Positions 29,991 to 56,692 of a DNA stretch of 64,000 bases are shown here, one piece after another. The position numbers were made by a program, and so were the translations under genes. The stretch lies in assembly GCF_964355755.1 (NCBI RefSeq), contig NC_092674.1, positions 8,618,001-8,682,000 of the forward strand, in the 5' to 3' direction. How positions within the stretch are numbered: the first letter of the stretch is position 1; each line of letters starts with the position of its first letter. The notes below the pieces were generated by a model. The model made no database searches. It saw only the letters and a program-made list of their open reading frames with translations, and was not told where the DNA came from. This DNA comes from Antedon mediterranea. Its lineage: Eukaryota; Animalia; Echinodermata.

Positions 29991-30191
29991 ATGAACATGG
30001 AGTCCTCCACTGTTACGATGTCGCTGTGTTTGTTGTTTACTTTTTGCTGTTTATTTCTAATTTCTTCGGCTGCACCACAAAAAGCTTTGTACAAATTAGA
30101 TGATTCTTGGCCATTAAATACATCAGTATTTACTGGGCAGGTTTACAGTGTCGATATTGATGAGAAAGCTGGAGAAATATATGTTTCACAG
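29991..30191 (+). CDS. NHLRC3: NHL repeat-containing protein 3, exon 1 (signal peptide)
   Basis: MNMESS...LCLLFTFCCLFLISSA...LYKLDDSWP...FTGQVYSVDID...IYVSQ, then donor CAG|GTGAGT, phase 0. Confidence 0.88.
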
Positions 30192-30256
30192 GTGAGTTAT
30201 TTGACTTTCCCAGACTAGGCTAGACTCTACTACTAGGCCTAGGCCTAGGCCTAGTA

Positions 30257-31028
30257 GGACGCTAGTTCCGTTTCGCACCTGTCATTTATTTCGACTCAAA
30301 ATGGGTTAAGAAACTTTATCGTGAGTACCACACCTTAAAATTAGGCCTCAAAAATACTTTTAGGAAGGAGATCACACAAAAAGTGACAAATAAATGCTTT
30401 AAATTGATGAATTTACAGACGTGTTTCTCGCACATCGGTTCGTCAATTTCGCATACGCCATGTTCAATGTTGTTGTTTCTATGGAGCGCCAAAAGAGCCT
30501 CAATTTTAATATATTTTGCCAATGTCAATGCAACAAAAATGTTACTGTTGATACCCTACATGATTTTAAAATCGACAAATTCATCATCCATATACATGCA
30601 TGTACTGTAGTTTTTATACCTCAAATGATCTAAATAATATTCCTCTTAGTCTCAGGCCTAGGCTAGGTACCCCTAGGGTTTTGTTGCATTGACATTGACA
30701 AAATATATTAAAATTGAACGTAATTTTCACCAATAAATGCATTAAATATACGCATTATATTGAGTTTTTAGCCCTCTATTATGATTGCTCTTTTGGCGCT
30801 CCATAGAAACAACAACATTGAACATGGCGTATGCAAAATTGACGAACCGATGTGCGAGAAACACGTCTGTAAATTCATCAATTTAAAGCATTTATTTGTC
30901 ACTTTTTGTGTGATCTCCTTCGTAAAAGTATTTTTGAGGCCTAATTCTAAGGTGTGGTACTCACGATAAAGTTTCTTAACACATTTTGAGTCGAAATAAA
31001 TGACAGGTGCGAAACGGAACTAGCGCCC
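30257..31028. mobile_element. Long-TIR MITE (772 bp) in NHLRC3 intron 1
   Basis: Near-perfect TIRs of about 240 bp starting GG(A/G)CGCTAGTTCCGTTTCGCACCTG, with a 6-bp TSD CTAGTA (30251-30256 and 31029-31034). Confidence 0.85.
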
Positions 31029-31729
31029 CTAGTAGTAGAGAAAGAGTGAGTAGTCCTTCTAGGCCGAGTAAAAGAGTGGTGTTTATTATTACGTGGATGC
31101 CTTAAAACCTTCCTCTCCCCCGCTGGTGGACAGTTGCTTATATGGAAAGACTGCACATTGTCAGTAGACAGACATTGCAATTATTTTTCTGCACTACCTA
31201 ATCATTAAAACTGTAATTGGGCGCTAGTGTGTAAGTGCCCGTCTTAATATTATATAACATCTCAAAAATAAATAAAATAATTGTTAGCCAGTCCCAGTTT
31301 GTATTTATAATTTGGTTAAATTCCTAGCCTTAGGTAGGGGTGTCACGAAAGCTCAGACCACGAAAGCTCAGACCCCCTAAGACCTAAGATCACGAAAGCT
31401 AAGACACAAAAGCGCCGTGAAGTTGGTTACTTATTCCTTATTCGACATTCGTCAATGGAAGTTGGTTCCTTATTCGACGTTCGACATTCGCTAGGCTAGG
31501 CCAAAATTTCGAAAATGATAATTTCCCAGCGGTAAATATGCCGTGCGCCACCAACCAATCTCCTGCTGTTACTTATTCCCTATTCGACATTCATTCTTGA
31601 AGTTGGTTCCTTATTCGACGATCGCTAGGCCGCGGCCGACCGGCTGGCCCAAATTCGTACCAAAGTAGACCTAGTGTAGATGTACCTATTTTATCACAGA
31701 TTTACATTTTTTAGTTCCGATATTACGAC

Positions 31730-34700
31730 CATACCAACGCCTCGGGCCGGGTTCACAATAGTATAGATTGACGTAGTATGGTCCTGGAATTCCAGAAATG
31801 TGCCACTTGCCCCGACCCAGATCGGGCAAGTACGGATTTTAAAGCAATTTAAAATGCGTATTTTTAGCATTAATTTAGTAAACACCACTTTTAAAGTGGC
31901 CATATGACCACACACCGACGCCTCGCGTCGGGTACACAATAGTATAGATTGACGTAGTATGGTCCTGGCATTCCAGAAATGTGCCACCTGCCCCGGCCCA
32001 GTGCGGGCAAGTACGTGTTTTAAAGCAATTTCAAATGCGTATTTTTAGCAAAAATTTACTAAGAATTAATAGCACCACTTTTAAAGTGGCCATATGACCA
32101 CACCTCGACGCCTCAGGTCGGGTTCACAATAGTATAGATTGATGTAGAATGGTCCTGGCATTCCATAAATGTGCCACTTGCCCCGGCCCAGTGCGGGCAA
32201 GTAAGTGTTTAAAAGCAATTTCAAATGCGTATTTTTAGCATTAATTTACAAAGAATTAATAGCACCACATTTAAAGTGGCCATATGACCACACCCCGACG
32301 CCTCGGGCCGGGAACACAATAGTATAGATTGACGTAGTATGGTCCTGGCATTCCAGAAATATGCCACTTGCCCAGGCCCAGTGCGGGCAAGTACGGATTT
32401 AAAAGCAATTTAAAATGCGTATTTTTAGCATTAATTTAGTAAACACCACTTTTAAAGTGGCCATATGACCACACCCCGACGCCTCGGGCCGGGTATACAA
32501 TAGTATAGATTGACGTAGTATGGTCCTGACTTTCCAGAAATGTGCCACTTGCCCCGGCCCAGTGCGGGCAAGTACGTGTTTAATAGCAATTTCAAATGCG
32601 TATTTTTAGCATTAATTTACCAAGAATTAATAGCACCACTTTTAAAGTGGCCATATGACCACACCCCAACGCCTCGGGCCGGGAACACAATAGTATAGAT
32701 TGACGTAGAATGGTCCTGGCATTCCAGAAATGTGCCACTTGCCCCGGCCCAGTGCGGACAAGTACGGATTTTAAAGCAATTTAAAATGCGTATTTTTAGC
32801 ATTAATTTAGTAAACACCACTTTTAAAGTGGCCATATGACCACACCCCGACGCCTCGGGCCGGGTACACAATAGTATAGATTGACTTAGTATGGTCCTGG
32901 CTTTCCAGAAATGTGCCACTTGCCCCGGCCCAGTGCGGGCAAGTACGTGTTTAAAAGCAATTTCAAATGCGTATTTTTAGCATTAATTTACTAAGAATTA
33001 ATAGCACCACATTTAAAGTGGCCATATGACCACACCCCGACGCCTCGGGCCGGGAACACAATAGTATAGATTAACGTAGTATGGTCCTGGCATTCCAGAA
33101 ATATGCCACTTGCCCCGGCCCAGTGCGGGCAAGTACGGATTTTAAAGCAATTTAAAATGCGTATTTTTAGCATTAATTTAGTAATCACCACTTTTAAAGT
33201 GGCCATATGACCACACCCCGACGCCTCGGGCCGGGTACACAATAGTATATATTGACGTAGTATGGTCCTGGCTTTCCAGAAATGTGCCACTTGCCCCGGC
33301 CCATGCGGGCAAGTACGGATTTTAAAGCAATTTGAAATGCGTGTTTTTAGTGTTATTTTACTAAGTATTAATAGCACCACTTTTAAAGTGGCAATATGAC
33401 CACACCCCGACGCCTCGGACCGGATTCACAATAGTATGGATTGACGTAGAATGGTCCGGACATTCCAGAAATGTGCCACTTGCCTCGGCCTAGTGCGGGC
33501 AAGTACGTGTTTTAAAGCAATTTAAAATGCGTATTTGTAGTGTTATTTTACTAAGTATTAATAGCACCACTTTTAAAGTGGCCATATGACCACACCCCGA
33601 CGCCTCGGGCCGGGTACACAATAATATAGGTTGACGTAGTATGGTCCTGGCATTCCAGAAATGTGCCACTTTCCCCGGCCCAGTGCGGGCAAGTACGGGT
33701 TTTAAAGCAATTTCAAATGCGTATTTTTAGCATTAATTTACTAAGAATTAATAGCACCACATTTAAAGTGGCCATATGACCACACCCCGACGCCTCGGGC
33801 CGGGAACACAATAGTATAGATTGACGTAGTATGGTCCTGGCATTCCAGAAATATGCCACTTGCCCAGGCCCCCAGTGCGGGCAAGTACGGATTTTAAAGC
33901 AATTTAAAATGCGTATTTTTAGCATTAATTTAGTAAACACCACTTTTAAAGTGGCCATATGACCACACCCCGACGCCTCGGGCCGGGTACACAATAGTAT
34001 AGATTGACGTAGTATGGTCCTGACTTTCCAGAAATGTGCCACTTGCCCCGGCCCAGTGCGGGCAAGTACGTGTTTAAAAGCAATTTCAAATGCGTATTTT
34101 TAGCATTAATTTACTAAGAATTAATAGCACCACTTTTAAAGTGGCCATATGACCACACACCGACGCCTCGGGCCGGGAACAAAATAGTATAGATTGACGT
34201 AGAATGGTCCTGGCATTCCAGAAATGTGCCACTTGCCCCGGCCCAATGCGGGCAAGTACGGATTTTAAAGCAATTTAAAATGCGTATTTTTAGCATTAAT
34301 TTAGTAAACACCACTTTTAAAGTGGCCATTATGACCACACACCGACGCCTCGGGTCGGGTTCACGATAGTATAGATTGACGTAGTATGGTCCTGGCATTG
34401 ATCCAGAAATGTACCACTTGCCCCGGCCTGGTGCGGGCAAGTACGTGTTTTAAAGCAATTTAAAATGCGTATTTTTAGTGTTATTTTACTAAGTATTAAT
34501 AGCACCACTTTTAAAGTGGCCATATGACCACACCCCGACGCCTCGGACCGGGTACATAATAGTATAGATTGACGTAGTATGGTCCTGGCTTTCCAGAAAT
34601 GTGCCACTTGCCCCGGCCCAGTGCGGGCAAGTACGGGTTTTAAAGCAATTTAAAATGCGTATTTTTAGTGTTATTTTACTAAGTATTAATAGCACCACTT

Positions 34701-37700
34701 TTAAAGTGGCCATATGACCACACCCCGACGCCTCGGGCCGGGTACACAATAATATAGATTGACGTAGTATGGTCCTGGCATTCCAGAAATGTGCCACTTG
34801 CCCCGGCCCAGTGCGGGCAAGTACGGGTTTTAAAGCAATTTAAAATGCGTATTTTTAGTGTTATTTTACTAAGTATTAAAAGCACCACTTTTAAAGTGGC
34901 AATATGACCACACCCCGACGCCTCGGGCCGGGTACACAATAGTATAGATTGACGTACAGTAGTATGGTCCTGACTTTCCAGAAATGTGCCACTTGCCCCG
35001 GTCCAGTGCGGGCAAGTACGTGTTTAAAAGCAATTTCAAATGCGTATTTTTAGCATTAATTTACTAAGAATTAATAGCACAACTTTTAAAGTGGCCATAT
35101 GACCACACCCCAACGCCTCGGGCCGGGAACACAATAGTATAGATTGACGTAGAATGGTCCTGGCATTCCAGAAATGTGCCACTTGCCCCGGCCCAGTGCG
35201 GGCAAGTACGGATTTTAAAGCAATTTAAAATGCGTATTTTTAGCATTAATTTAGTAAACACCACTTTTAAAGTGGCCATATGACCACACCCCGACGCCTC
35301 GGGCCGGGTACACAATAGTATAGATTGACTTAGTATGGTCCTGGCTTTCCAGAAATGTGCCACTTGCCCCGGCCCAGTGCGGGCAAGTACGTGTTTAAAA
35401 GCAATTTCAAATGCGTATTTTTAGCATTAATTTACTAAGAATTAATAGCACCACATTTAAAGTGGCCATATGACCACACCCCGACGCCTCGGGCCGGGTA
35501 CACAATAGTATAGATTAACGTAGTATGGGCCTGGCTTTCCAGAAATGTGCCACTTGCCCCGGCCCAGTGCGGGCAAGTACGGATTTTAAAGCAATTTGAA
35601 ATGCGTGTTTTTAGTGTTATTTTACTAAGTATTAATAGCACCACTTTTAAAGTGGTAATATGACCACACCCCGACGCCTCGGACCGGATTCACAATAGTA
35701 TGGATTGACGTAGAATGGTCCGGACATTCCAGAAATGTGCCACTTGCCCCGGCCCAGTGCGGGCAAGTACGTGTTTTAAAGCAATTTAAAATGCGTATTT
35801 TTAGTGTTATTTTACTAAGTATTAATAGCACCACTTTTAAAGTGGCCATATGACCACACCCCGACGCATCGGGCCGGGTACACAATAATATAGGTTGACG
35901 TAGTATGGTCCTGGCATTCCAGAAATGTGCCACTTTCCCCGGCCCAGTGCGGGCAAGTACGGGTTTTAAAGCAATTTCAAATGCGTATTTTTAGCATTAA
36001 TTTACTAAGAATTAATAGCACCACATTTAAAGTGGCCATATGACCACACCCCGACGCCTCGGGCCGGGAACACAATAGTATAGATTGACGTATTATGGTC
36101 CTGGCATTCCAGAAATATGCCACTTGCCCAAGCCCAGTGCGGGCAAGTACGGATTTTAAAGCAATTTAAAATGCGTATTTTTAGCATTAATTTAGTAAAC
36201 ACCACTTTTAAAGTGGCCATATGACCACACCCCGACGCCTCGGGCCGGGTACACAATAGTATAGATTGACGTAGTATGGTCCTGACTTTCCAGAAATGTG
36301 CCACTTGCCCCGGCCCAGTGCGGGCAAGTACGTGTTTAAAAGCAATTTCAAATGCGTATTTTTAGCATTAATTTACTAAGAATTAATAGCACCACTTTTA
36401 AAGTGGCCATATGACCACACCCCAACGCCTCGGGCCGGGAACAAAATAGTATAGATTGACGTAGAATGGTCCTGGCATTCCAGAAATGTGCCACTTGCCC
36501 CGGCCCAGTGCGGGCAAGTACGGATTTTAAAGCAATTTAAAATGCGTATTTTTAGCATTAATTTAGTAAACACCACTTTTAAAGTGGCCATTATGACCAC
36601 ACACCGACGCCTCGGGTCAGGTTCACGATAGTATAGATTGACGTAGTATGGTCCTGGCATTGATCCAGAAATGTACCACTTGCCCCGGCCTGGTGCGGGC
36701 AAGTACGTGTTTTAAAGCAATTTAAAATGCGTATTTTTAGTGTTATTTTACTAAGTATTAATAGCACCACTTTTAAAGTGGCCATATGACCACACCCCGA
36801 CGCCTCGGACCGGGTAGATTATAGTATAGATTGACGTAGTATGGTCCTGGCTTTCCAGAAATGTGCCACTTGCCCCGGCCCAGTGCGGGCAAGTACGGGT
36901 TTTAAAGCAATTTAAAATGCGTATTTTTAGTGTTATTTTACTAAGTATTAATAGCACCACTTTTAAAGTGGCCATATGACCAAACCCCGACGCCTCGGGC
37001 CGGGTACACAATAATATAGATTGACGTAGTATGGTCCTGGCATTCCAGAAATGTGCCACTTGCCCCGGCCCAGTGCGGGCAAGTACGGGTTTTAAAGCAA
37101 TTTAAAATGCGTATTTTTAGTGTTATTTTACTAAGTATTAAAAGCACCACTTTTAAAGTGGCAATATGACCACACCCCGACGCCTCGGGCCGGGTACACA
37201 ATAGTATAGATTGACGTAGTATTGTCCTGGCTTTCCAGAAATGTGCCACTTGCCCCGGCCCAGTGCGGGCAAGTACGGATTTTAAAGCAATTTAAAATGC
37301 GTATTTTTAGCAATAATTTAGTAAACACCACTTTTAAAGTGGCCATATGACCACACCCCGACGCCTCGGGTCGGGTTCACAATAGTATAGATTGATGTAG
37401 AATGGTCCTGGCATTCCACAAATGTGCCACTTGCCCCGGCCCAGTGCGGGCAAGTACGTATTTAAAAGCAATTTCAAATGCGTATTTTTAGCATTAATTT
37501 ACTAAGAATTAATAGCACCACATTTAAAGTGGCCATAATATGACCACACCCCGGCCCCTCGGGCCGGGTACACAATAGTATAGATTGACGTAGTACTGTC
37601 CTGGCATTCCAGAAATATGCCACTTGCCCCGGCCCAGTGCGGGCAAGTATGGATTTTAAAGCAATATAAAATGCGTATTTTTAGCATTTTTAGTAAACAC

Positions 37701-38780
37701 AACTTTTAAAGTGGCCATATGACCACACCCCGACGCCTCGGACCGGGTACACAATAGTATAGATTGACGTAGTATGGTCCTGGCATTCCAGAAATGTGCC
37801 ACTTGCCCCGGCCCAGTGTGGGCAAGTAGGGGTTTTAAAGCAATTTAAAATGCGTCTTTTTAGTGTTATTTTACTAAGTATTATAATAGCACCACTTTTA
37901 AAGTGGCCGTATGACCACACCCCAACGCCTCAGGTCGGGTACACAATAGTATAGATTGACGTAGTAGTGTCCTGGCTTTCCAGAAATGTGCCACTTGCCC
38001 CGGCCCAGTGCGGGCAAGTACGGATTTTAAAGCAATTTAAAATGCGTATTTTTAGCATTAATTTAGTAAACACCACTTTTAAAGTGGCCATATAACCACA
38101 CCCCGACGCCCCGGATCGGGTTCACAATAGTATAGATTGATGTAGAATGGTCCTGGCATTCCATAAATGTGCCACTTGCCCCGGCCCAGTGTTGGCAAGT
38201 ACGTGTTTTAAAGCAATTTAAAATGCGTATTTTTAGCATTAATTTACTAAGAATTAATGGCACCACATTTAAAGTGGCCATATGACCACACCCCGACGCC
38301 TCGGGCCGGGTACACAATAATATAGATTGGCGTAGTATGGTCCTGGCATTCCAGAAATGTTCCACTTGCCCCGGCCCAGTGCGGGCAAGTACGAATTTTA
38401 TAGCAATTTAAAATGCGTATTTTTAGCATTAATTTAGTAAACACCACTTTTAAACTGTCCATTATGACCACACACCGACGCCTAGGGTCGGGTTCACGAT
38501 AGTATAGATTGACGTAGTATGGTCCTGGCATTCCAGAAATGTACCACTTGCCCCGGCCTGGTGCGGGCGAGTACGTGTTTTAAAGCAATTTAAAATGCGT
38601 ATTTTTAGTGTTTTTTACTAAGTATTAATAGCACCACTTTTAAAGTGGCAATATGACCACACCCCGACGCCTCGGGCCGGGTTCACAATAGTATAGATTG
38701 ACGTAGTATGGTCCTGGCATTCCATAAATGTGCCACTTGCCCCGGCCCAGTGCGGGCAAGTACGTGTTTTAAAGCACTTT
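31730..38780 (-). repeat. Satellite array, left arm, about 38 monomers of 190/181 bp
   Basis: Reverse-complement copies of the monomer, with ORF-track offsets of 190 and a 2262-bp higher-order offset. Confidence 0.97.
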
Positions 38781-41700
38781 AAAGTGTTTCTGGAAAGTCA
38801 GGACCATACTACGTCAATCTATACTATTGTGTACCCGGCCCGAGGCGTCGGGGTGTGGTCATATGGCCACTTTAAAAGTGGCGTTTACTAAATTAATGCT
38901 AAAAATACGCATTTTAAATAGCTTTAAAACACGTACTTGCCCGCACTGGTCCGGGGCAAGTGGCACATTTCTGGAATTTCAGGACCATTCTACGTCAATC
39001 CATACTATTGTGAACCCGGCGCGAGGCGTCGGGGTGTGGTCATATTGCCACTTTAAAAGTAGTGCTGTTAATACTTAGTTAAAAAAACACTAAATATACG
39101 CATTTTAAATTGCTTTTAAACACGTACTTGCCCGCACTGGGCCGGGGCAAGTGGCACGTTTATGGAATGCCAGGACCATTCTACATCAACAATCTATACT
39201 ATTGTGAACCCGACCCAAGGCGTCGGGGTGTGGTCATATGGCCACTTTAAAAGTGGTGTTTACTAAATTAATGCTAAAAATACGCATTTTAAATTGCTTT
39301 AAAATCCGTACTTGCCCGCACTGGGCCGGGGCAAGTGGCACATTTCTGGAAAGCCAGGACCATACTGCGTCAATCTATACTATTGTGTACCCGGCCCGAG
39401 GCGTCGGGGTGTGGTCATATGGCCACTTTAAAAGTGGTGCTATTAATACTTAGTAAAATAACACTAAAAATAAGCATTTTAAATTGCTTTAAAACACGTA
39501 CTGGCCCGCACTGGGCCGGGGCAAGTGGCACATTTCTAGAAAGTCTGGACCTTTCTACGTCAATCCATACTATTGTGAACCCGGCCCGAGGCGTCGGGGT
39601 GTGGTCATATTGCCACTTTAAAAGTGGTGCTATTAATACTTAGTAAAATAACACTAAAAATACGCATTTTAAATTGCTTTAAAACACGTACTTGCCCGCA
39701 CCAGGCCGGGGCAAGTGGTACATTTCTGGATCAATGCCAGGACCATACTACGTCAATCTATACTATCGTGAACCCGACCCGAGGCGTCGGTGTGTGGTCA
39801 TAATGGCCACTTTAAAAGTGGTGTTTACTAAATTAATGCTAAAAATACGCATTTTAAATTGCTTTAAAATCCGTACTTGCTCGCACTGGGCCGGGGCAAG
39901 TGGCACATTTCTGGAAAGCCAGGACCATACTACGTCAATCTATACTATTGTGTACCCGGCCCGAGGCGTCGGGGTGTGGTCAGATCATATGGCCACTTTA
40001 AAAGTGGTGTTTACTAAATTAATGCTAAAAATACGCATTTTAAATTGCTTTAAAATCCGTACTTGCTCGCACTGGGCCGGGGCAAGTGGCATATTTCTGG
40101 AATGCCAGGACCATACTACGTCAATCTATACTATTGTGTTCCCGGCCCGAGGCGTCGGGGTGTGGTCATATGGCCACTTTAAATGTGGTGCTATTAATTC
40201 TTAGTAAATTAATGCTAAAAATACGCATTTGAAATTGCTTTTAAACACTTACTTGCCCGCACTGGGCCGGGGCAAGTGGCACATTTATGGAATGCCAGGA
40301 CCATTCTACATCAATCTATACTATTGTGAACCCGACCCGAGGCGTCGGGGTGTGGTCATATGGCCACTTTAAAAGTGGTGCTATTAATTCTTAGTAAATT
40401 TTTGCTAAAAATACGCATTTGAAATTGCTTTAAAATAACGTACTTCCACGCACTGGGCCGGGGCAGGTGGCACATTTCTGGAATGTCAGGACCATACTAC
40501 GTCAATCTATACTATTGTGTACCCGGCCCGATGCGTCGGGGTGTGGTCATATGGCCACTTTAAAAGTGGTGTTTACTAAATTAATGCCAAAAATACGCAT
40601 TTTAAATTGCTTTAAAATCCGTACTCGCCCGCACTGGGCCGGGGCAAGTGGCACATTTCTGGAAAGCCAGGACCATACTACGTCAATCTATACTATTGTG
40701 TACCCGGCCCGAGGCGTCGGGGTGCGGTCATATTGCCACTTTAAAAGTGGTGCTATTAATACTTAGTAAAATAACACTAAAAATACGCATTTTAAATTGC
40801 TTTAAAACCCGTACTTGCCCGCACTGGGCCGGGCAAAGTGGCACATTTCTGGAATGCCAGGACCATACTACGTCAATCTATATTATTGTGTACCCGGCCC
40901 GAGGCGTCGGGGTGTGGTCATATTGCCACTTTAAAAGTGGTGCTATTAATACTTAGTAAAATAACATTAAAAATACGCATTTTAAATTGCTTTAAAACAC
41001 GTACTTGCCCGCACTGGGCCGGGGCAAGTGGCACATTTCTGGAATGTCCGGACCAGTCTACGTCAATCCACACTATTGTGAATCCGGCCCGAGGCGTCGG
41101 GGTGTGGTCATATTGCCACTTTAAAAGTGGTGCTATTAATACTTAGTAAAATAACACTAAAAACACGCATTTTAAATTGCTTTAAAATCCGTACTTGCCC
41201 ACACTGGGCCGGGGCAAGTGGCACATTTCTGGAAAGCCAGGACCATACTACGTCAATCTATACTATTGTGTACCCGGCCCGAGGCGTCGGGGTGTGGTCA
41301 GATCATATGGCCACTTTAAAAGTGGTGTTTACTAAATTAATGCTAAAAATACGCATTTTAAATTGCTTTAAAATCCGTACTTGCCCGCACTGGGCCGGGG
41401 CAAGTGGCATATTTCTGGAATGCCAGGACCATACTACGTTAATCTATACTATTGTGTTCCCGGCCCGAGGCGTCGGGGTGTGGTCATATGGCCACTTTAA
41501 ATGTGGTGCTATTAATTCTTAGTAAATTAATGCTAAAAATACGCATTTGAAATTGCTTTTAAACACGTACTTGCCCGCACTGGGCCGGGGCAAGTGGCAC
41601 ATTTCTGGAAAGCCAGGACCATACTAAGTCAATCTATACTATTGTGTACCCGGCCCGACGCGTCGGGGTGTGGTCATATGGCCACTTTAAAAGTGGTGTT

Positions 41701-44700
41701 TACTAAATTAATGCTAAAAATACGCATTTTAAATTGCTTTAAAATCCGTACATGCCCGCACTGGGCCGGGGCAAGTGGCACATTTCTGGAATGCCAGGAC
41801 CATTCTACGTCAATCTATACTATTGTGTTCCCGGCCCGAGGCGTTGGGGTGTGGTCATATGGCCACTTTAAAAGTGGTGCTATTAATTCTTAGTAAATTA
41901 ATGCTAAAAATACGCATTTGAAATTGCTTTTAAACACGTACTTGCCCGCACTGGGCCGGGGCAAGTGGCACATTTCTGGAAAGTCAGGACCATACTACGT
42001 CAATCTATACTATTGTGTACCCGGCCCGAGGCGTCGGGGTGTGATCATATGGCCACTTTAAAAGTGGTGTTTACTAAATTAATGCCAAAAATACGCATTT
42101 TAAATTGCTTTAAAATCCGTACTCGCCCGCACTGGGCCGGGGCAAGTGGCACATTTCTGGAAAACAAGGACCATACTACGTCAATCTATACTATTGTGTA
42201 CCCGGCCCGAGGCGTCGGGGTGCGGTCATATTGCCACTTTAAAAGTGGTGCTATTAATACTTAGTAAAATAACACTAAAAATACGCATTATAAATTGCTT
42301 TAAAACCCGTACTTGCCCGCACTGGGCCGGGGAAAGTGGCACATTTCTGGAATGCCAGGACCATACTACGTCAACCTATATTATTGTGTACCCGGCCCGA
42401 GGCGTCGGGGTGTGGTCATATGGCCACTTTAAAAGTGGTGCTATTAATACTTAGTAAAATAACACTAAAAATACGCATTTGAAATTGCTTTTAAACACGT
42501 ACTTGCCCGCACTGGGCCGGGGCAAGTGGCACATTTCTGGAAAGTCAGGACCATACTACGTCAATCTATACTATTGTGAATCCGGCCCGAGGCGTCGGGG
42601 TGTGGTCATATTGCCACTTTAAAAGTGGTGCTATTAATACTTAGTAAAATAACACTAAAAACACGCATTTTAAATTGCTTTAAAACACGTACTTGCCCGC
42701 ACTGGGCCGGGGCAAGTGGCACATTTCTGGAATGTCCGGACCATTCTACGTCAATCCATACTATTGTGAATCCGGTCCGAGGCGTCGGGGTGTGGTCATA
42801 TTGCCACTTTAAAAGTGGTGCTATTAATACTTAGTAAAATAACATTAAAAATACGCATTTTAAATTGCTTTAAAATCCGTACTTGCCCGCACTGGGCCGG
42901 GGCAAGTGGCATATTTCTGGAATGCCAGGACCATACTACGTCAATCTATACTATTGTGTTCCCGGCCCGAGGCGTCGGGGTGTGGTCATATGGCCACTTT
43001 AAATGTGGTGCTATTAATTCTTAGTAAATTAATGTGTTTACTAAATTAATGCTAAAAATACGCATTTTAAATTGCTTTAAAATCCGTACTTGCCCGCACT
43101 GGGCCGGGGCAAGTGGCATGTTTCTGGAATGCCAGGACCATACTACGTTAATCTATACTATTGTGTTCCCGGCCCGAGGCGTCGGGGTGTGGTCATATGG
43201 CCACTTTAAATGTGGTGCTATTAATTCTTAGTAAATTAATGCTAAAAATACGCATTTGAAATTGCTTTTAAACACGTACTTGCCCGCACTGGGCCGCGGC
43301 AAGTGGCACATTTCTGGAAAGCCAGGACCATACTAAGTCAATCTATACTATTGTGTACCCGGCCCGACGCGTCGGGGTGTGGTCATATGGCCACTTTAAA
43401 AGTGGTGTTTACTAAATTAATGCTAAAAATACGCATTTTAAATTGCTTTAAAATCCGTACATGCCCGCACTGGGCCGGGGCAAGTGGCACATTTCTGGAA
43501 TGCCAGGACCATTCTACGTCAATCTATACTATTGTGTTCCCGGCCCGAGGCGTTGGGGTGTGGTCATATGGCCACTTTAAAAGTGGTGCTATTAATTCTT
43601 AGTAAATTAATGCTAAAAATACGCATTTGAAATTGCTTTTAAACACGTACTTGCCCGCACTGGGCCGGGGCAAGTGGCACATTTCTGGAAAGTCAGGACC
43701 ATACTACGTCAATCTATACTATTGTGTACCCGGCCCGAGGCGTCGGGGTGTGATCATATGGCCACTTTAAAAGTGGTGTTTACTAAATTAATGCCAAAAA
43801 TACGCATTTTAAATTGCTTTAAAATCCGTACTCGCCCGCACTGGGCCGGGGCAAGTGGCACATTTCTGGAAAACAAGGACCATACTACGTCAATCTATAC
43901 TATTGTGTACCCGGCCCGAGGCGTCGGGGTGCGGTCATATTGCCACTTTAAAAGTGGTGCTATTAATACTTAGTAAAATAACACTAAAAATACGCATTAT
44001 AAATTGCTTTAAAACCCGTACTTGCCCGCACTGGGCCGGGGAAAGTGGCACATTTCTGGAATGCCAGGACCATACTACGTCAACCTATATTATTGTGTAC
44101 CCGGCCCGAGGCGTCGGGGTGTGGTCATATGGCCACTTTAAAAGTGGTGCTATTAATACTTAGTAAAATAACACTAAAAATACGCATTTGAAATTGCTTT
44201 TAAACACTTACTTGCCCGCACTGGGCCGGGGCAAGTGGCACATTTCTGGAAAGTCAGGACCATACTACGTCAATCTATACTATTGTGAATCCGGCCCGAG
44301 GCGTCGGGGTGTGGTCATATTGCCACTTTAAAAGTGGTGCTATTAATACTTAGTAAAATAACACTAAAAACACGCATTTTAAATTGCTTTAAAACACGTA
44401 CTTGCCCGCACTGGGCCGGGGCAAGTGGCACATTTCTGGAATGTCCGGACCATTCTACGTCAATCCATACTATTGTGAATCCGGTCCGAGGCGTCGGGGT
44501 GTGGTCATATTGCCACTTTAAAAGTGGTGCTATTAATACTTAGTAAAATAACATTAAAAATACGCATTTTAAATTGCTTTAAAATCCGTACTTGCCCGCA
44601 CTGGGCCGGGGCAAGTGGCATATTTTTGGAATGCCAGGACCATACTACGTCAATCTATACTATTGTGTTCCCGGCCCGAGGCGTCGGGGTGTGGTCATAT

Positions 44701-47700
44701 GGCCACTTTAAATGTGGTGCTATTAATTCTTAGTAAATTAATGTGTTTACTAAATTAATGCTAAAAATACGCATTTTAAATTGCTTTAAAATCCGTACTT
44801 GCCCGCACTGGGCCGGGGCAAGTGGCATATTTCTGAAATGCCAGGACCATACTACGTCAATCTATACTATTGTGTTCCCGGCCCGAGGCGTCGGGGTGTG
44901 GTCATATGGCCACTTTAAATGTGGTGCTATTAATTCTTAGTCAATTAATGCTAAAAATACGCATTTGAAATTGCTTTTAAACACGTACTTGTCCGCACTG
45001 AGCCGGGGCAAGTGGCACATTTCTGGAAAGCCAGGACCATACTACGTCAATCTATACTAATGTGTACCCGGCCCGAGGCGTCGGGGTGTGGTCATATGGC
45101 CACTTTAAAAGTGGTGTTTACTAAATTAATGCTAAAAATACGCATTTTAAATTGCTTTAAAATCCGTACTTGCTCGCACTGGGCCGGGGCAAGTGGCATA
45201 TTTATGGAATGCCAGGACCATACTACGTCAATCTATACTATTGTGTTCCCGGCCCGAGGCGTCGGGGTGTGGTCATATGGCCACTTTAAATGTGGTGCTA
45301 TTAATTCTTAGTAAATTAATGCTAAAAATACGCATTTGAAATTGCTTTTAAACACTTACTTGCCCGCACTGGGCCGGGGCAAGTGGCACATTTATGGAAT
45401 GCCAGGACCATTCTACATCAATCTATACTATTGTGAACCCGACCCGAGGCGTCGGGGTGTGGTCATATGGCCACTTTAAAAGTGGTGCTATTAATTCTTA
45501 GTAAATTTTTGCTAAAAATACGCATTTGAAATTGCTTTAAAATCCGTACTTGCCCGCACTGGGCCGGGGCAAGTGGCATATTTCTGAAATGCCAGGACCA
45601 TACTACGTCAATCTATACTATTGTGTTCCCGGCCCGAGGCGTCGGGGTGTGGTCATATGGCCACTTTAAATGTGGTGCTATTAATTCTTAGTAAATTAAT
45701 GCTAAAAATACGCATTTGAAATTGCTTTTAAACACGTACTTGTCCGCACTGAGCCGGGGCAAGTGGCACATTTCTGGAAAGCCAGGACCATACTACGTCA
45801 ATCTATACTAATGTGTACCCGGCCCGAGGCGTCGGGGTGTGGTCATATGGCCACTTTAAAAGTGGTGTTTACTAAATTAATGCTAAAAATACGCATTTTA
45901 AATTGCTTTAAAATCCGTACTTGCTCGCACTGGGCCGGGGCAAGTGGCATATTTATGGAATGCCAGGACCATACTACGTCAATCTATACTATTGTGTTCC
46001 CGGCCCGAGGCGTCGGGGTGTGGTCATATGGCCACTTTAAATGTGGTGCTATTAATTCTTAGTAAATTAATGCTAAAAATACGCATTTGAAATTGCTTTT
46101 AAACACTTACTTGCCCGCACTGGGCCGGGGCAAGTGGCACATTTATGGAATGCCAGGACCATTCTACATCAATCTATACTATTGTGAACCCGACCCGAGG
46201 CGTCGGGGTGTGGTCATATGGCCACTTTAAAAGTGGTGCTATTAATTCTTAGTAAATTTTTGCTAAAAATACGCATTTGAAATTGCTTTAAAATAACGTA
46301 CTTCCACGCACTGGGCCGGAGCAGGTGGCACATTTCTGGAATGTCAGGACCATACTACGTCAATCTATACTATTGTGTACCCGGCCCGATGCGTCGGGGT
46401 GTGGTCATATGGCCACTTTAAAAGTGGTGTTTACTAAATTAATGCCAAAAATACGCATTTTAAATTGCTTTAAAATCCGTACTCGCCCGCACTGGGCCGG
46501 GGCAAGTGGCACATTTCTGGAAAGCCAGGACCATACTACGTCAATCTATACTATTGTGTACCCGGCCCGAGGCGTCGGGGTGCGGTCATATTGCCACTTT
46601 AAAAGTGGTGCTATTAATACTTAGTAAAATAACACTAAAAATACGCATTTTAAATTGCTTTAAAACCCGTACTTGCCCGCACTGGGCCGGGCAAAGTGGC
46701 ACATTTCTGGAATGCCAGGACCATACTACGTCAATCTATATTATTGTGTACCCGGCCCGAGGCGTCGGGGTGTGGTCATATGGCCACTTTAAAAGTGGTG
46801 CTATTAATACTTAGTAAAATAACATTAAAAATACGCATTTTAAATTGCTTTAAAACACGTACTTGCCCGCACTGGGCCGGGGCAAGTGGCACATTTCTGG
46901 AATGTCCGGACCATTCTACGTCAATCCACACTATTGTGAATCCGGCCCGAGGCGTCGGGTGTGGTCATATTGCCACTTTAAAAGTGGTGCTATTAATACT
47001 TAGTAAAATAACACTAAAAACACGCATTTTAAATTGCTTTAAAATCCGTACTTGCCCGCACTGGGCCGGGGCAAGTGGCACATTTCTGGAAAGCCAGGAC
47101 CATACTACGTCAATCTATACTATTGTGTACCCGGCCCGAGGCGTCGGGGTGTGGTCAGATCATATGGCCACTTTAAAAGTGGTGTTTACTAAATTAATGC
47201 TAAAAATACGCATTTTAAATTGCTTTAAAATCCGTACTTGCCCGCACTGGGCCGGGGCAAGTGGCATATTTCTGGAATGCCAGGACCATACTACGTTAAT
47301 CTATACTATTGTGTTCCCGGCCCGAGGCGTCGGGGTGTGGTCATATGGCCACTTTAAATGTGGTGCTATTAATTCTTAGTAAATTAATGCTAAAAATACG
47401 CATTTGAAATTGCTTTTAAACACGTACTTGCCCGCACTGGGCCGGGGCAAGTGGCACATTTCTGGAAAGCCAGGACCATACTAAGTCAATCTATACTATT
47501 GTGTACCCGGCCCGACGCGTCGGGGTGTGGTCATATGGCCACTTTAAAAGTGGTGTTTACTAAATTAATGCTAAAAATACGCATTTTAAATTGCTTTAAA
47601 ATCCGTACATGCCCGCACTGGGCCGGGGCAAGTGGCACATTTCTGGAATGCCAGGACCATTCTACGTCAATCTATACTATTGTGTTCCCGGCCCGAGGCG

Positions 47701-50700
47701 TTGGGGTGTGGTCATATGGCCACTTTAAAAGTGGTGCTATTAATTCTTAGTAAATTAATGCTAAAAATACGCATTTGAAATTGCTTTTAAACACGTACTT
47801 GCCCGCACTGGGCCGGGGCAAGTGGCACATTTCTGGAAAGTCAGGACCATACTACGTCAATCTATACTATTGTGTACCCGGCCCGAGGCGTCGGGGTGTG
47901 ATCATATGGCCACTTTAAAAGTGGTGTTTACTAAATTAATGCCAAAAATACGCATTTTAAATTGCTTTAAAATCCGTACTCGCCTGCACTGGGCCGGGGC
48001 AAGTGGCACATTTCTGGAAAACAAGGACCATACTACGTCAATCTATACTATTGTGTACCCGGCCCGAGGCGTCGGGGTGCGGTCATATTGCCACTTTAAA
48101 AGTGGTGCTATTAATACTTAGTAAAATAACACTAAAAATACGCATTTTAAATTGCTTTAAAACCCGTACTTGCCCGCACTGGGCCGGGGAAAGTGGCACA
48201 TTTCTGGAATGCCAGGACCATACTACGTCAACCTATATTATTGTGTACCCGGCCCGAGGCGTCGGGGTGTGGTCATATGGCCACTTTAAAAGTGGTGCTA
48301 TTAATACTTAGTAAAATAACACTAAAAATACGCATTTGAAATTGCTTTTAAACACGTACTTGCCCGCACTGGGCCGGGGCAAGTGGCACATTTCTGGAAA
48401 GTCATGACCATACTACGTCAATCTATACTATTGTGAATCCGGCCCGAGGCGTCGGGGTGTGATCATATTGCCACTTTAAAAGTGGTGCTATTAATACTTA
48501 GTAAAATAACACTAAAAACACGCATTTTAAATTGCTTTAAAACACGTACTTGCCCGCACTGGGCCGGGGCAAGTGGCACATTTCTGGAATTTCCGGACCA
48601 TTCTACGTCAATCCATACTATTGTGAATCCGGCCCGAGGCGTCGGGGTGTGGTCATATTGCCACTTTAAAAGTGGTGCTATTAATACTTAGTAAAATAAC
48701 ACTAAAAACACGCATTTCAAATTGCTTTAAAATCCGTACTTGCCCGCACTGGGCCGGGGCAAGTGGCACATTTCTGGAAAGCCAGGACCATACTACGTCA
48801 ATCTATACTATTGTGTACCCGGCCCGAGGCGTCGGGGTGTGGTCATATGGCCACTTTAAAAGTGGTGTTTACTAAATTAATGCTAAAAATACGCATTTTA
48901 AATTGCTTTAAAATCCGTACTTGCCCGCACTGGGCCGGGGCAAGTGGCATATTTCTGGAATGCCAGGACCATACTACGTTAATCTATACTATTGTGTTCC
49001 CGGCCCGAGGCGTCGGGGTGTGGTCATATGGCAACTTTAAATGTGGTGCTATTAATTCTTAGTAAATTAATGCTAAAAATACGCATTTGAAATTGCTTTT
49101 AAACACGTACTTGCCCGCACTGGGCCGGGGCAAGTGGCACATTTCTGGAAAGCCAGGACCATACTAAGTCAATCTATACTATTGTGTACCCGGCCCGAGG
49201 CGTCGGGGTGTGGTCATATGGCCACTTTAAAAGTGGTGTTTACTAAATTAATGCTAAAAATACGCATTTTAAATTGCTTTAAAATCCGTACTTGCCCGCA
49301 CTGGGCCTGGGCAAGTGGCACATTTCTGGAATGCCAGGACCATTCTACGTCAATCTATACTATTGTGTTCCCGGCCCGAGGCGTTGGGGTGTGGTTATAT
49401 GGCCACTTTAAAAGTGGTGCTATTAATTCTTAGTAAATTAATGCTAAAAATACGCATTTGAAATTGCTTTTAAACACGTACTTTCCCGCACTGGGCCGGG
49501 GCAAGTGGCACATTTCTGGAAAGTCAGGACCATACTACGTCAATCTATACTATTGTGTACCCGGCCCGAGGCGTCGGGGTGTGGTCATATGGCCACTTTA
49601 AAAGTGGTGTTTACTAAATTAATGCTAAAAATACGCATTTTAAATTGCTTTAAAATCCGTACTTGCCGGCACTGGGCCGGGGCAAGTGGCATATTTCTGG
49701 AATGCCAGGACCATACTACGTCAATCTATACTATTGTGTTCCCGGCCCGAGGCGTCGGGGTGTGGTCATATGGCCACTTTAAATGTGGTGCTATTAATTC
49801 TTAGTAAATTAATGCTAAAAATACGCATTTGAAATTGCTTTAAAATACGTACTTGCCCGCACTGGGCCGGGGCAAGTGGCACATTTCTGGAATGCCAGGA
49901 CCATTCTACGTCAATCTATACTATTGTGTTCCCGGCCCGAGGCGTTGGGGTGTGGTCATATGGCCACTTTAAAAGTGGTGCTATTAATTCTTAGTAAATT
50001 AATGCTAAAAATACGCATTTGAAATTGCTTTTAAACACGTACTTTCCCGCACTGGGCCGGGGCAAGTGGCACATTTCTGGAAAGTCAGGACCATACTACG
50101 TCAATCTATACTATTTTGTACCCGGCCCGAGGCGTCGTGGTGTGGTCATATGGCCACTTTAAAAGTGGTGTTTACTAAATTAATGTTAAAAATATGCATT
50201 TTAAATTGCTTTAAAATCCGTACTTGCCGGCACTGGGCCGGGGCAAGTGGCATATTTCTGGAATGCCAGGACCATAATACGTCAATCTATACTATTGTGT
50301 TCCCGGCCCGAGGCGTCGGGGTGTGGTCATATGGCCACTTTAAATGTGGTGCTATTAATTCTTAGTAAATTAATGCTAAAAATACGCATTTGAAATTGCT
50401 TTTAAACACTTACTTGCCCGCACTGGGCCGGGGCAAGTGGCACATTTATGGAATGCCAGGACCATTCTACATCAATCTATACTATTGTGAACCCGACCTG
50501 AGGCGTCGGGGTGTGGTTATATGGCCACTTTAAAAGTGGTGCTATTAATTCTTAGTAAATTTTTGCTAAAAATACGCATTTGAATATTGCTTTAAAACAC
50601 GTACTTTTGCACGCACTGGGCCGAGGCAGGTGGCACATTTCTGGAATGCCAGGACCATACTACGTCAATCTATACTATTGAGTACCCGGCCCGATGCGTC

Positions 50701-51455
50701 GGGGTGTGGTCATATGGCCACTTTAAAAGTGGTGTTTACTAAATTAATGCCAAAAATACGCATTTTAAATTGCTTTAAAATCCGTACTTGCCCGCACTGG
50801 GCCGGGGCAAGTGGCACATTTCTGGAAAGCCAGGACCATACTACGTCAATCTATACTATTGTGTACCCGGCGGCCGGCCCGAGACGTCGGGGTGTGGTCA
50901 TATTGCCACTTTAAAAGTGGTGCTATTAATACTTAGTAAAATAACACTAAAAATACGCATTTTAAATTGCTTTAAAACCCGTACTTGCCCGCACTGTGCC
51001 GGGGCAAGTGGCACATTTCTGGAATGCCAGGACCATACTACGTCAATCTATATTATTGTGTACCCGGCCCGAGGCGTCGTGGTGTGGTCATATGGCCACT
51101 TTAAAAGTGGTGCTATTAATTCTTAGTAAATTATTGCTAAAAATACGCATTTGAAATTGCTTTAAAACACGTACTTGCCCGCACTGGGCCGGGGCAGGTG
51201 GCACATTTCTGGAATGCCAGGACCATACTACGTCAATCTATACTATTGTGTACCCGACGCGAGGCGTCGGTGTGTGGTCATATGGCCACTTTAAAAGTGG
51301 TGTTTACTAAATTAATGCTAAAAATACGCATTTTAAATTGCTTTAAAATCCGTACTTGCCCGATCTGGGTCGGGGCAAGTGGCACATTTCTGGAATTCCA
51401 GGACCATACTACGTCAATCTATACTATTGTGAACCCGGCCCGAGGCGTTGGTATG
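38781..51455 (+). repeat. Satellite array, right arm, about 68 monomers of 190/181 bp
   Basis: GTACTTGCCCGCACTGGGCCGGGGCAAGTGGCACATTTCTGG...CCACTTTAAAAGTGG...ATACGCATTTTAAATTGCTTTAAAA is repeated, with offsets of 181 and 190 (40467, 40648, 40838). Confidence 0.97.
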
Positions 51456-52039
51456 GTCGTAATATCGGAACTAAAAAATGTAAATCTGTGATAAAATAGG
51501 TACATCTACACTAGGTCTACTTTGGTACGAATTTGGGCCAGCCGGTCGGCCGCGGCCTAGCGAACGTCGAATAAGGAACCAACTTCACGAATGAATGTCG
51601 AATAGGGAATAAGTAACAGCAGGAGATTGGTTGGTGGCGCACGGCATATTTACCGCTGGGAAATTATCATTTTCGAAATTTTGGCCTAGCCTAGCGAATG
51701 TCGAACGTCGAATAAGGAACCAACTTCCATTGACGAATGTCGAATAAGGAATAAGTAACCAACTTCACGGCGCTAGACCCAACACCTAAGATTACAAATA
51801 CTAAGATATACTACAGCTTAAAAACAATACTTGTTTATCCATACATAATTTTAAACACAGTAGGTTTCATTTATTACCATAAATATAATTTAATACTACC
51901 GCAAAACATAGATAAACTCACATTATTTTCGCCCGTTGAGTAAATGTATATTTTTTCTTTACAACAAACAAACTTGACGGGTTGTTTGTTGGTATATATT
52001 TACTCCATTGTGTTGCTTCAGAGGATGTTTTTCTTCCTT

Positions 52040-52700
52040 TCTTGTATTTTGACTCCAAATTTGTTGACTAACTTTATCCTGAACACCACACTTTAAAATT
52101 AGGACTTATAAGTACTTTCAGAAGGAGAAACACATAATAACAAATAAATAAATCCTTTAAATTGATGATTTTACAGATGTGTTTCTTTGTATACTGTAAT
52201 GACAATGTAACTCCTCGAGCTCGGCCCCCCCCATGCTCAATGTTTTTGTTTCTATGGAGCGCCAAAAGAGCAACAATAATAGTACAAGTATAAAAACAGA
52301 AAGAAAACGAAACAAAAAAACTTATCATGATTTTTAAATTAAAATTTATTTGCCAGTATTTATTTCTTCGTACTTGCATGATTATACTATTATCATTACA
52401 ATTTTAATTTTACATTGTTCCATCCACACTGTAGATGGACTCCACAGAGTTTTCAGCCCTCTATATAATTTTTGCTCTTTTGACGTTCCATAGAAACAAA
52501 AACATTGAACATGGCCCATGGGGTAGGCCTACTGTCCTGTAGGCTAGTCATTTTGTGTGCGAGAAAAACGTCTGTAAAATCTTCAATTTAAAAATGTATT
52601 TGTTACTTTTTATGTGATTCTTTTTCATGAAAGTGCCAATTCTAAGGTGTGGTATTCAGAATAATTGTTGGGAGTTAAAATACAAGGCAGGTGCGAAAGA
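52040..52700. mobile_element. Diverged relative of the 30257-31028 MITE, inside the outer element
   Basis: Shares ACCACAC.TTAAAATTAGG, GTTTCTATGGAGCGCCAAAAGAGC and, inverted, TCCATAGAAACAA.AACATTGAACATGG...AATTCTAAGGTGTGGTA...CAGGTGCGAAA. Boundaries are approximate. Confidence 0.7.
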
Positions 52701-52921
52701 TAAATATTTGTAATCTTAGGTGTTGGGTCTTAGCTTTCGTGATCTTAGGTCTTAGGGGGTCTGAGCTTTCGTGGTCTGAGCTTTCGTGACACCCCCTTAG
52801 GTAGAGTACAGTCCACCCTTTAATTTACTAAATTACTAAATCAAATAATATTACTGTTTTTGTTTTAATTCATCAATAGTAAAACCTTTTCATTTACTAA
52901 AAAAATTAAATTTTTCTGTAG

Positions 52922-53084
52922 AGGGGTGTTAAATTTCATCCTATTGTAGTATTCTCTGAAGATGGACATCTGAAACGAGTGCTGACCTTTGATACGTCAG
53001 TTGTGAGCATGATCCATGGTCTACGAGTCTTTCAAAACGTAACGTCAGGTCAAACCAGTGTGTGGGTGACAGATCTTGGAAATG
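52922..53084 (+). CDS. NHLRC3: NHLRC3 exon 2
   Basis: Acceptor TTTTTCTGTAG. Encodes RGVKFHPIVVFSEDGHLKRVL...IHGLRV...SVWVTDLGN, matching the NHLRC3 QRG..ILVFTEDG..HGI..SVWITDVG segment. Donor G|GTAAAC, phase 1. Confidence 0.88.
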
Positions 53085-53132
53085 GTAAACGTTTGCAGAA
53101 AGTGTTGATTAAACCCAAGGATAGTGTTGGAC

Positions 53133-53325
53133 CAAGGCAATCCTAACAACAGGATGCTGAGCTCCGGAGATCAAAGAGTTTATCTGTGGCTGCGACACGA
53201 TCTGTTCCACGCCCCTTAACAGACACAGCGCGCCATGAAGAAGCAGCCAGACATAAGATCAAAGGACTGTTAGGAGTTCCTATCTTGACAAGTCGAGCTC
53301 AGTGTCCTGTTGTTAGATTGCCTTG
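53133..53325. mobile_element. MITE (about 190 bp) in NHLRC3 intron 2
   Basis: TIRs CAAGGCAATCCTAACAACAGGATGCTGAGCTC and GAGCTCAGTGTCCTGTTGTTAGATTGCCTTG. No clear TSD. Confidence 0.65.
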
Positions 53326-53587
53326 ATTGACTGCTCTCTTAGGATGTACTGCTCTGTTTGGGGATGTATGCAAAACATTTTTAATTAAATTTTAGTATCA
53401 ATGAACAGTGAAAAAAATGTTTTCCCTTTCATCTCTCATTGTCCCCCATTTACTGTACCACACACTGACAAATATGGCTTTTATTTCACCAGAAGTAAAC
53501 AATTTTGTATATGTGTGTATAAAATACTTGTGCATTCACTGTTTTTTGTACTACTTTAAACTTTATTGCCTGTTTTCAATTCTACAG

Positions 53588-53788
53588 CTACATATGGACA
53601 TACAGTGAAGGGGTTTTCCCCTGAAGGTAAACTTGAGACTATGATTGGAACAGCAGGGACGGCAGGAACAGGTCTAGCCCCAGTACAGTTTGATCATGTT
53701 GCTGATTTGGCCTTCAATGAGAAGGGGGAGATGTACATTGTAGATGGAGACGGTGGTAGTAATAATAGGCTAATTAAACTGTCTAAAG
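53588..53788 (+). CDS. NHLRC3: NHLRC3 exon 3
   Basis: Acceptor CTACAG. Encodes TYGHTVKGFSPEG...GTAGTGLAPVQFDHVADL...MYIVDGDGGSNNRLIKLSK. Donor G|GTAATT, phase 1. Confidence 0.92.
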
Positions 53789-54100
53789 GTAATTACAAAA
53801 ATTGAGTTCAACTTCCACTAATAAGATTATTACTGTATACAAATACCGATGATGAGTAGAACAGGCAGAATATAATTTCATGATTTGAAAGACTGATTGA
53901 CTGTTCTATTCAAATAGACCAGTACATTTTTCAATGAATGAAAAATAATACAGGTTAGTTGTTTTTTGAATGCGCAAAGATAACAGAAAACAAAAATAAA
54001 CAACGTAATAGCCGCTATGAATGTTTACCAATTCAAAACAATTGAGTTAACCACTCAGCAGTGTTCAGCCATATATTATTATATTATCATTATTTTCTAG

Positions 54101-54308
54101 ATTTCAAACTGATGTGGCACGTTGGTGGACCAAACAGTACTAAAGATGGCTACTTTGATGTACCGCATAGTGTTGAGCTTGACGAGCACAATCGTGTCTG
54201 GGTCGCTGACCGCATGAACGGTAGACTTCAAGCTTTTGATGCGGACACTGGCAAATTCCTGGGAAAGTGGACAAGTTGTTTTTCAACTGGGCAACCATAT
54301 TCTGTCAG
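54101..54308 (+). CDS. NHLRC3: NHLRC3 exon 4
   Basis: Acceptor TTTTCTAG. Encodes the NHL repeat FDVPHSVELDEHNRVWVADRMNGRLQAFD...WTSCF...PYSVR. Donor AG|GTTAGT, phase 2. Confidence 0.92.
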
Positions 54309-54339
54309 GTTAGTGACACATTGGCACCGTGTATTCAGA

Positions 54340-54490
54340 GCATATAAAGCGAGCGGTTAAGACAATGGAACCGTAATTAAGTAGCCATAACATCGACAAG
54401 GGTTCAAGGCTCACTTACTCCGTGGCTCTGGTGGTAGAACAAGTCTTCTCGGATAAAGACTATAAACCATAGGTCCAGTGTACACATCTA
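54340..54490 (+). mobile_element. Degenerate tRNA-derived SINE fragment in NHLRC3 intron 4
   Basis: GCGAGCGGTTAAGAC (A-box-like), GGGTTCAAG (B-box-like), then TCGGATAAAGACTATAAACCATAGGTCC, which resembles conserved SINE central domains. Confidence 0.45.
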
Positions 54491-54817
54491 GCTAATCTAG
54501 CTAATTTCCCTCTGGGAAACCAGTCTTTGACTAAAATGGTTACCTGGTATAGGTATAAATAAATAACACATTCAAAAAAATTGTAATCAATATTAATAAT
54601 TGAATGGTTTATATAGTTTTTACATGATTTTTTTACTAATACTATCGATGAAAAAAATGTTTGCATGTATGTATAGTTATAAAACAAATAAAGTTGATTT
54701 GATATAAAACCAAATCAACAGTCAAGTTATAAGTGAATATGCTTTGTACATGGATTTATTTTTAATATATTACTTGTAGATAGCTTGTAAAATTTATATA
54801 AACCATTTCTTTTTCAG

Positions 54818-55079
54818 AATCAGTAAAGATAAGACGCATTTTATCGTTGCACTACTGAATGAAAGCAAAATACTTTTGGTTGCTACCCCACCGAATGCTG
54901 GTGCAATCGGAGAATGTGTTGTATTAGATACAATTACACTACCTCAAAACACAGCACCACATCTCGTCGGAGTAAACAACAAATCTGGAGTGTTTTACGT
55001 GGCGGAGTTAAAAACTCACACATGTCAAAAGTTTGTACCTATTGAACGAAAGAAAAACAAAATATATAATGATTTGTAA
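54818..55079 (+). CDS. NHLRC3: NHLRC3 exon 5 (last coding exon)
   Basis: Acceptor TTTTTCAG. Encodes ISKDKTHFIVALLN...PPNAGAIGECVVLDTITL...PHLVGV...FYVAEL...QKFVP, then TAA. The five exons total 1035 nt, or 344 aa plus stop. Confidence 0.9.
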
Positions 55080-55212
55080 CATTTTTTTACTTATTGAATA
55101 GAGCTTCAGCTGAATAAGTGTCACGAACAAATAAGTACTGATCCCAACGTTTGTATTCAAATAAGCACTGCTAATAAAGATATATTTGTTTTTGTTTTCT
55201 TTAGCCATGCTT

Positions 55213-56485: not shown

Positions 56486-56692
56486 TATATTATATACTCT
56501 ACACGTATTGAAGTTTTTTCCATTACTTTACATTACAGTTACATAAGTACCGAAAACAATGTCAATATACCACTGCTTGTTTGATCATAAGAATATACAG
56601 TAAGTTTATGTAATGAAATCATTTACAATTGTACCAATGTAATATGATAGCGAAAATTATATAATTTAAATAAATGAAAGATTATAAATTAA

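Follow-up and report, generated by a model that had tools for sequence, protein, structure and literature searches.

A probable foldback transposon with satellite-like arms in an intron of Antedon mediterranea

Introduction

What kind of event can set two tandem-repeat arrays of opposite orientation between near-identical inverted ends, inside the intron of a gene? The question is raised by the segment 31411–51774 of a 64,000-nucleotide stretch of the Antedon mediterranea genome (NC_092674.1, positions 8,618,001–8,682,000; this whole stretch is referred to as the window, and coordinates are counted from its first letter). An initial annotation of the bare sequence had proposed a foldback transposon whose inverted arms are satellite arrays. 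We consider it quite likely that the segment is an intronic, gene-less 20-kb inverted-repeat insertion, likely a non-autonomous foldback element and probably of the Mutator type, whose passenger monomers have grown by block duplication. The initial interpretation is supported in part: the evidence favours a foldback element that is non-autonomous, has arms of satellite-like repeats and a target-site duplication (TSD) in the 8–9-bp range, and its end proved to be multi-copy in read-derived contigs.

Results

Ends and insertion site

The two ends of the segment (31411–31735 against 51774–51450) are 99.4% identical, and the outer 641 bp of the arms are 99.7% identical in an ungapped alignment whose only mismatches fall at 31597 and 31621, in agreement with the inverted ends of about 320 bp and two mismatches described initially. 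Within the left end, TTATTC occurs five times and GAAGTTGGTT three times, together with a duplicated 58-bp block. The arms, long inverted repeats of 7.4 kb (left) and 13.0 kb (right), account for the bulk of the element, and they are modular, a distinct outer domain being followed by internal tandem repeats whose number differs between the arms. The ends had been called unique, which is correct inside the 64-kb window but not beyond it, where the same sequence is multi-copy in the read contigs. An Rfam search of 31300–32400 gave no match at E values up to 1.

The element interrupts the left inverted end of a ~1.1-kb transposable element of the miniature inverted-repeat type (MITE), a host that the first description had overlooked together with the intronic location. 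The two halves of this end, of 65 and 26 bp, abut exactly across the insertion and are identical at 91 of 91 bp to the intact right end; the flanks are therefore the two sides of a single site, from which the insertion removed no sequence. The MITE is young, and is itself flanked by an 8–10-bp direct repeat (31328–31337/52795–52804) that overlaps its end bases. The imperfect 9-bp TSD reported to bound the element was recovered: AGACACAAA and AGACCCAAC match, at this one site, in 7 of 9 positions, 9 bp having the fewest mismatches among lengths 4–12, and the chance of such a match is ~0.002 per test. An alternative register gives a 7/8 match plus one extra base. Insertion of the element was likely recent.

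Copies in read-derived contigs

Further copies of the end were sought in contigs derived from sequencing runs, of which X1 and X5 come from the same organism, X6 from organism B and X9 from organism C (share 0.07); contig depth is a poor measure of copy number. In X1, three single contigs matching the end have depths of 3816, 3175 and 2697, compared with 269 for a flank contig, which corresponds to ~14, 12 and 10 times the flank, or roughly 10–14 near-identical ends. A 948-bp contig of X6 carries a relative of ~90% identity, matching 31410–31561 (15 other letters and 5 gap letters) behind 791 bp of a different flank. One X5 contig has an end, beginning at 31411, joined behind position 31474 of another end, which is one end inserted into another; in a second X5 contig a monomer is fused straight to the outer right end, and this is a deleted copy. 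Dispersed ends are thus found at other flanks in X5 and X6 as well as through the X1 depths, each seen as a single end rather than as one of a pair. The base preceding 31411 varies among the end contigs and therefore supports 31411 as the terminus, while contigs that come loose at 31450 are a sign of further families with only the outer ~40 bp in common.

These observations bear on a transposon-free explanation, in which a satellite array and its flank were duplicated once, in inverted orientation, by fold-back repair. Two ends of the same sequence and the lack of a middle domain would be expected from such an event too. We nevertheless regard it as highly improbable, since the end recurs in near-identical copies and at other flanks, the host MITE was cleanly split with a short duplication and without loss, and the inner monomers do not mirror each other.

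At the insertion site, one contig each of X6 and X5 departs from the window sequence, at 31337 and 31334, respectively, where the host MITE starts; the departures would fit alleles without the insertion. X9 contributed one contig, which covers the host MITE only. Monomers are abundant in X6 (1192 contigs) and the outer ~150 bp of the end is present, but no X6 contig of 85% likeness covers the inner end (31570–31760); organism B may have a diverged subfamily or free arrays, although a hole of this kind proves nothing. Metagenome contigs were also scanned for exact occurrences of an end motif and of a monomer motif, and neither gave a match.

Relative to the flank, summed monomer depth reaches ~4,000x in X1 against ~60x in X5, whereas the corresponding ratio of the host MITE is ~5,000x in both. 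Such a gap would arise from strong variation of array load among individuals, or else from X5 being an RNA or otherwise biased library. Summed depth was rejected as an estimate of copy number, as overlapping contigs inflate it, and the X1 value is to be taken as an upper bound. A bolder picture would be a still-active family of 15–20-kb spacerless foldbacks that carry the whole array with each jump, with a more than tenfold spread of monomer load between individuals of one species and a hairpin RNA of its own from the intronic copy. We hold this to be speculative and rather doubtful; if true, the birth, growth and silencing of a satellite would be measurable within one species.

Arrays and monomers

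Counting an anchor motif gave 38 monomers on the left and 68 on the right, as had been annotated for the minus and plus orientations, and Tandem Repeats Finder (TRF) reported a period of 190 in both arrays with 36.8 and 67.3 copies. Monomers are mostly 181 or 190 bp long, with a mean pairwise identity of 92.3%, and among their distinct variants 69 transitions and 77 transversions were counted, with no striking strand bias. The arrays have a satellite-like structure, namely multi-kilobase head-to-tail monomers with higher-order duplication. The epithet 'nucleosome-sized' expresses a resemblance in length only.

The outermost monomers had been said to mirror each other, with identical 97-residue translations. 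They do lie in an exact 430-bp inverted match (31622–32051); the mirroring, however, ends beyond ~640 bp from the ends. The 97-residue translations were rejected as a gene, being a by-product of that match. Cross-arm pairs in general differ by 14.5 changes and those in mirror positions by 13.3, identity being confined to the first pair. The term 'giant palindrome' was accordingly an overstatement, as the inverted repeat formed by the arms is 92% identical and out of register, with a loop of 58 nt. Both arms draw on one monomer pool: no differentiation between them was detected (173 of 500 permutations reached the observed value), and ordered blocks of 5–6 monomers are common to both arms at shifted registers.

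Nearest-neighbour distance averages 6.9 for the innermost 6+6 complete monomers and 1.5 for the other 92; reduced recombination is expected at array edges (as put forward in bioRxiv 10.64898/2026.09.17.752431). When the three youngest block duplications of the right arm, which amount to 31 monomers and 5857 bp, are taken out by hand, arms of 37 and 36 complete monomers and an element of ~14.5 kb remain. Across the 19.7 kb of array, four end motifs of 6–10 nt are absent and a fifth, 5 nt long, is found once; the monomers are therefore likely cargo.

The centre of the element

The left array runs through 38786 and the right array begins at 38787 with no foreign spacer, which upholds the initial statement that the arrays meet directly. 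As the arms end at different monomer positions, folding leaves an unpaired loop of 58 nt, whose last 12 nt (38775–38786) form a perfect palindrome two letters away from the monomer consensus. Apart from this monomer-derived loop there is nothing between the arms, and the usual, variable middle domain of foldbacks is not present. Some copies of the Drosophila foldback element FB are also without a loop.

Coding content

The initial annotation had found no coding sequence, and this was borne out as far as the scans went. The interval 31411–52800 holds 45 stop-to-stop frames of at least 85 amino acids, the longest of 241. Pfam scans of three of the 45, namely the two longest frames and a third from within the MITE, gave no match at the curated cut-off and two sub-threshold matches. 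Among the 45 listed frames, three of them Pfam-scanned, no open reading frame of the Mutator-like element (MULE) transposase type was seen in the window copy.

Discussion

Observations that weigh against the proposed reading

Several observations speak against a recent foldback insertion at this locus, or against its sequence as assembled. At the 0.3% divergence of the arms, two mismatches in a 9-bp TSD are improbable (P ~0.0003), and an 8-bp TSD with one mismatch plus one extra base still has P ~0.025. None of the X1 contigs shows the letters that the left arm has at 31597 and 31621, and these are private mutations or assembly errors. Together with 31406 and 31410 in the TSD copy they make four transversions private to the left end, clustered within 216 bp and followed by none in the next 430 bp, a pattern that may reflect local error or clustered mutation. 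The left boundary is bridged by no contig among those listed, and the join 38786/38787 by none of the contigs listed from four runs. The family evidence is softened as well: X1 may be the assembly's own sample, and the depth of its unique-variant contigs ranges over ~200–400, which widens the estimate to 7–19 ends.

The unbridged join invites the suspicion that the element is real but its centre misassembled or collapsed, the true copy having other array lengths, or a middle domain that might encode a transposase. The near-identical duplications of 9 and 31 monomers (0.2–0.5%) are indeed repeats that assemblers can over- or under-count. Yet the join sits between the most diverged and most unique monomers of both arrays, whereas a misjoin would be likelier among look-alikes, and this favours an old, genuine junction. 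Furthermore, the arms are not mirrors at the level of reads and each has block duplications of its own, and the X2 depth of 99 in the junction bin could accommodate one bridging contig, single-copy and shorter than those listed. Unique-variant contigs of X2 have depths of 46–78, so that the exact centre would be common to at most one or two copies. X5 gives no cover right of 38791, but such contig holes prove nothing. A faulty centre therefore seems to us quite unlikely, and we retain the foldback element with directly joined arrays.

Assignment to a superfamily

Membership of Mutator is our best guess, drawn by analogy from TSD length, as MULEs are described with TSDs of 8–10 bp (PMC3169594, PMC5225508). 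It is only a best guess because the foldback shape has arisen in several superfamilies, as these and related accounts report (PMC3169594, PMC4079207). A foldback of another superfamily could be P/Galileo-like, hAT or Merlin, with TSDs of 7–9 bp, or belong to a group with 4-bp TSDs, with five filler bases on the left; in support of the latter, only AGAC is exactly duplicated beside host sequence. We think this unlikely, since 9 bp is the best of the registers compared, foldbacks are for the most part Mutator-like (PMC4079207), and the extra five bases are absent from the family end in X5 and X6 contigs.

Comparison with known elements

Among the papers listed by our literature search, from which most subscription papers were absent (the first descriptions of TU from sea urchin and of FB included), none treats a crinoid foldback element. 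Among the closest architectures is that of Tetris from Drosophila virilis, which as described in PMC4079207 also has a unique outer domain, tandem repeats of ~200–220 bp in both arms, no open reading frame and a TSD of 8–10 bp; its arrays can expand between two outer domains, and it too was assigned to Mutator from the TSD alone. Tetris differs in its terminal inverted repeats (TIRs) of up to 1,735 bp with few repeats and in having inner and middle domains, whereas the present arms are far longer and no middle domain is present. The size of the element is less unusual than the annotated 'much larger example' implied, in view of the Rehavkus-like elements of Tribolium, for which PMC12581902 and its bioRxiv version describe satellite monomers in the inverted termini, up to 50 of them consecutive, with termini sometimes above 11 kb. 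Their transposition was proposed to spread monomers (PMC12581902). Compared by description only, these elements differ in having a central part, and one of their monomers has expanded to an 80.5-kb array (PMC12581902).

The FB element of Drosophila melanogaster, according to PMC7642927, resembles the present one in its ~470-bp ends, its unequal mirrored repeat blocks, whose number is altered by unequal exchange, and its 9-bp TSD, but it is far smaller, with repeats of 27–31 bp and a ~320-bp middle in the copies described there. The Aedes aegypti element Muta1 and the Meloidogyne element Tm1 are reported with similarly modular TIRs, short subterminal repeats and TSDs of 8–10 bp (PMC5225508, PMC5499845, PMC3169594), the TSDs being 8–9 bp in Muta1 (PMC5225508) and noted as sometimes imperfect in the Tm1 accounts (PMC5225508, PMC5499845, PMC3169594). 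In Muta1 the short subterminal repeats bind transposase and more copies of them raise excision, as stated in PMC5499845. By analogy with Muta1, the short subrepeats of the ~313-bp ends are likely a candidate transposase-binding region. The tandem repeats of Muta1 are themselves the binding sites, whereas here the large monomers lack end motifs and that role would be left to the short subrepeats; arm repeats, this suggests, need not be transposase-binding sites. Finally, the macro-dyad arrays of Tribolium freemani centromeres, in the description of PMC12581902, likewise consist of two unequal inverted satellite subarrays with truncated monomers at the join and a short loop, but they are centromeric and have neither TIR nor TSD, unlike the intronic, low-copy sequence with transposon-like ends considered here.

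Proposed mechanism and significance

The element could have arisen as follows. A transposase made elsewhere would bind the short subrepeats of the ends and move the unit in trans by cut-and-paste, inserting it with an 8–9-bp duplication. The middle domain was probably lost long ago through deletion between the arrays, before the recent duplications; its loss is taken to be old because the innermost monomers are the oldest. Unequal exchange or slippage would then duplicate blocks of 4–31 monomers within each arm, and the ordered blocks common to both arms could stem from exchange or from common descent. The unit that landed was perhaps ~14.5 kb long and nearly symmetric, and then grew in place, a scheme whose date is not firm. 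Expansion of Galileo TIRs via tandem repeats and conversion is described in PMC3573991, and array expansion inside transposable elements appears as a standard route to satellites in a review (PMC12628747). Since the concept is already established by Tetris and Rehavkus, the gain lies in a crinoid lineage and a good test locus, and not in a new principle. Here the growth of satellite-like repeats within a probable transposon can be followed in a clean and datable form, divergence giving the order of the block duplications. The element is moderately noteworthy for being large, young, intronic and devoid of a middle domain.

Host gene and neighbourhood

The element and its host MITE lie inside the 22.7-kb intron 1 of an NHLRC3-like gene, whose exons 1 and 2 flank the stack in order (Table 1); the exon at 53590–53787 is 100% identical to the NHL repeat-containing protein 3-like of Antedon mediterranea. 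Insertion would have enlarged an intron of ~1.3 kb about 18-fold, and the pre-mRNA would hold both arms, which could fold into a stem of up to 7.4 kb.

Table 1. Coordinates of the element, its insertion site and the host gene in the window
Feature	Position	Strand	Remarks
Whole foldback element	31411..51774	.	20,364 bp; inverted pair by self-BLAST
Left terminal domain	31411..31723	+	~313 bp; short subrepeats GAAGTTGGTT x3 and TTATTCGAC x3
Left array	31724..38786	-	38 monomers; a block of 12 duplicated at an offset of 2262 bp, divergence ~0.9% (0.93%)
Central loop	38729..38786	.	58 nt of monomer sequence
Right array	38787..51461	+	68 monomers; block duplications at 4-, 9- and 31-monomer offsets (0.18–0.46%) and an older 9 (0.97%)
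Right terminal domain	51462..51774	-	Shows the read-contig letters at both mismatch sites
Left TSD copy, AGACACAAA	31402..31410	+	2/9 mismatched
Right TSD copy, AGACCCAAC	51775..51783	+	Agrees with the intact opposite end of the host MITE
Host MITE, outer 65 bp of left inverted end	31337..31401	+	Exact match to the MITE right end
Host MITE, remainder	51775..52795	.	Body and right end (52705–52795), with the inner 26 bp of the left end
NHLRC3-like exon 1	29997..30191	+	tblastn of protein; GT donor at 30192
NHLRC3-like exons 2–5	52922..55079	+	About 52922–53086, 53588–53788, 54100–54310, 54818–55079

A second MITE occupies 30257–31028 of the same intron; its 242-bp arms are 98% identical, and it is 70–74% similar to the host-MITE body (52036–52664). 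Elsewhere in the window, an apparently intact long interspersed nuclear element lies at 11004–15295 (+), with a 425-residue frame, weakly similar to a GDSL-like esterase, that overlaps a 1065-residue endonuclease and reverse transcriptase frame; it is likely young and presumably of the L2/CR1 group. Two nested inverted pairs, 56754–62295 (274 bp, 97.8%) and 57024–60788 (295 bp, 96.9%), with left arms that adjoin at ~57024–57027, are probably DNA transposons, one nested in the other, and a 244-bp direct repeat is present at 59930–60423. Two minisatellites were also observed, one at 25106–26145 with a ~72-bp unit in a 145-bp dimer, the other at 55129–56509, just past the NHLRC3-like stop codon, with a 25-bp unit and 40/65-bp variants.

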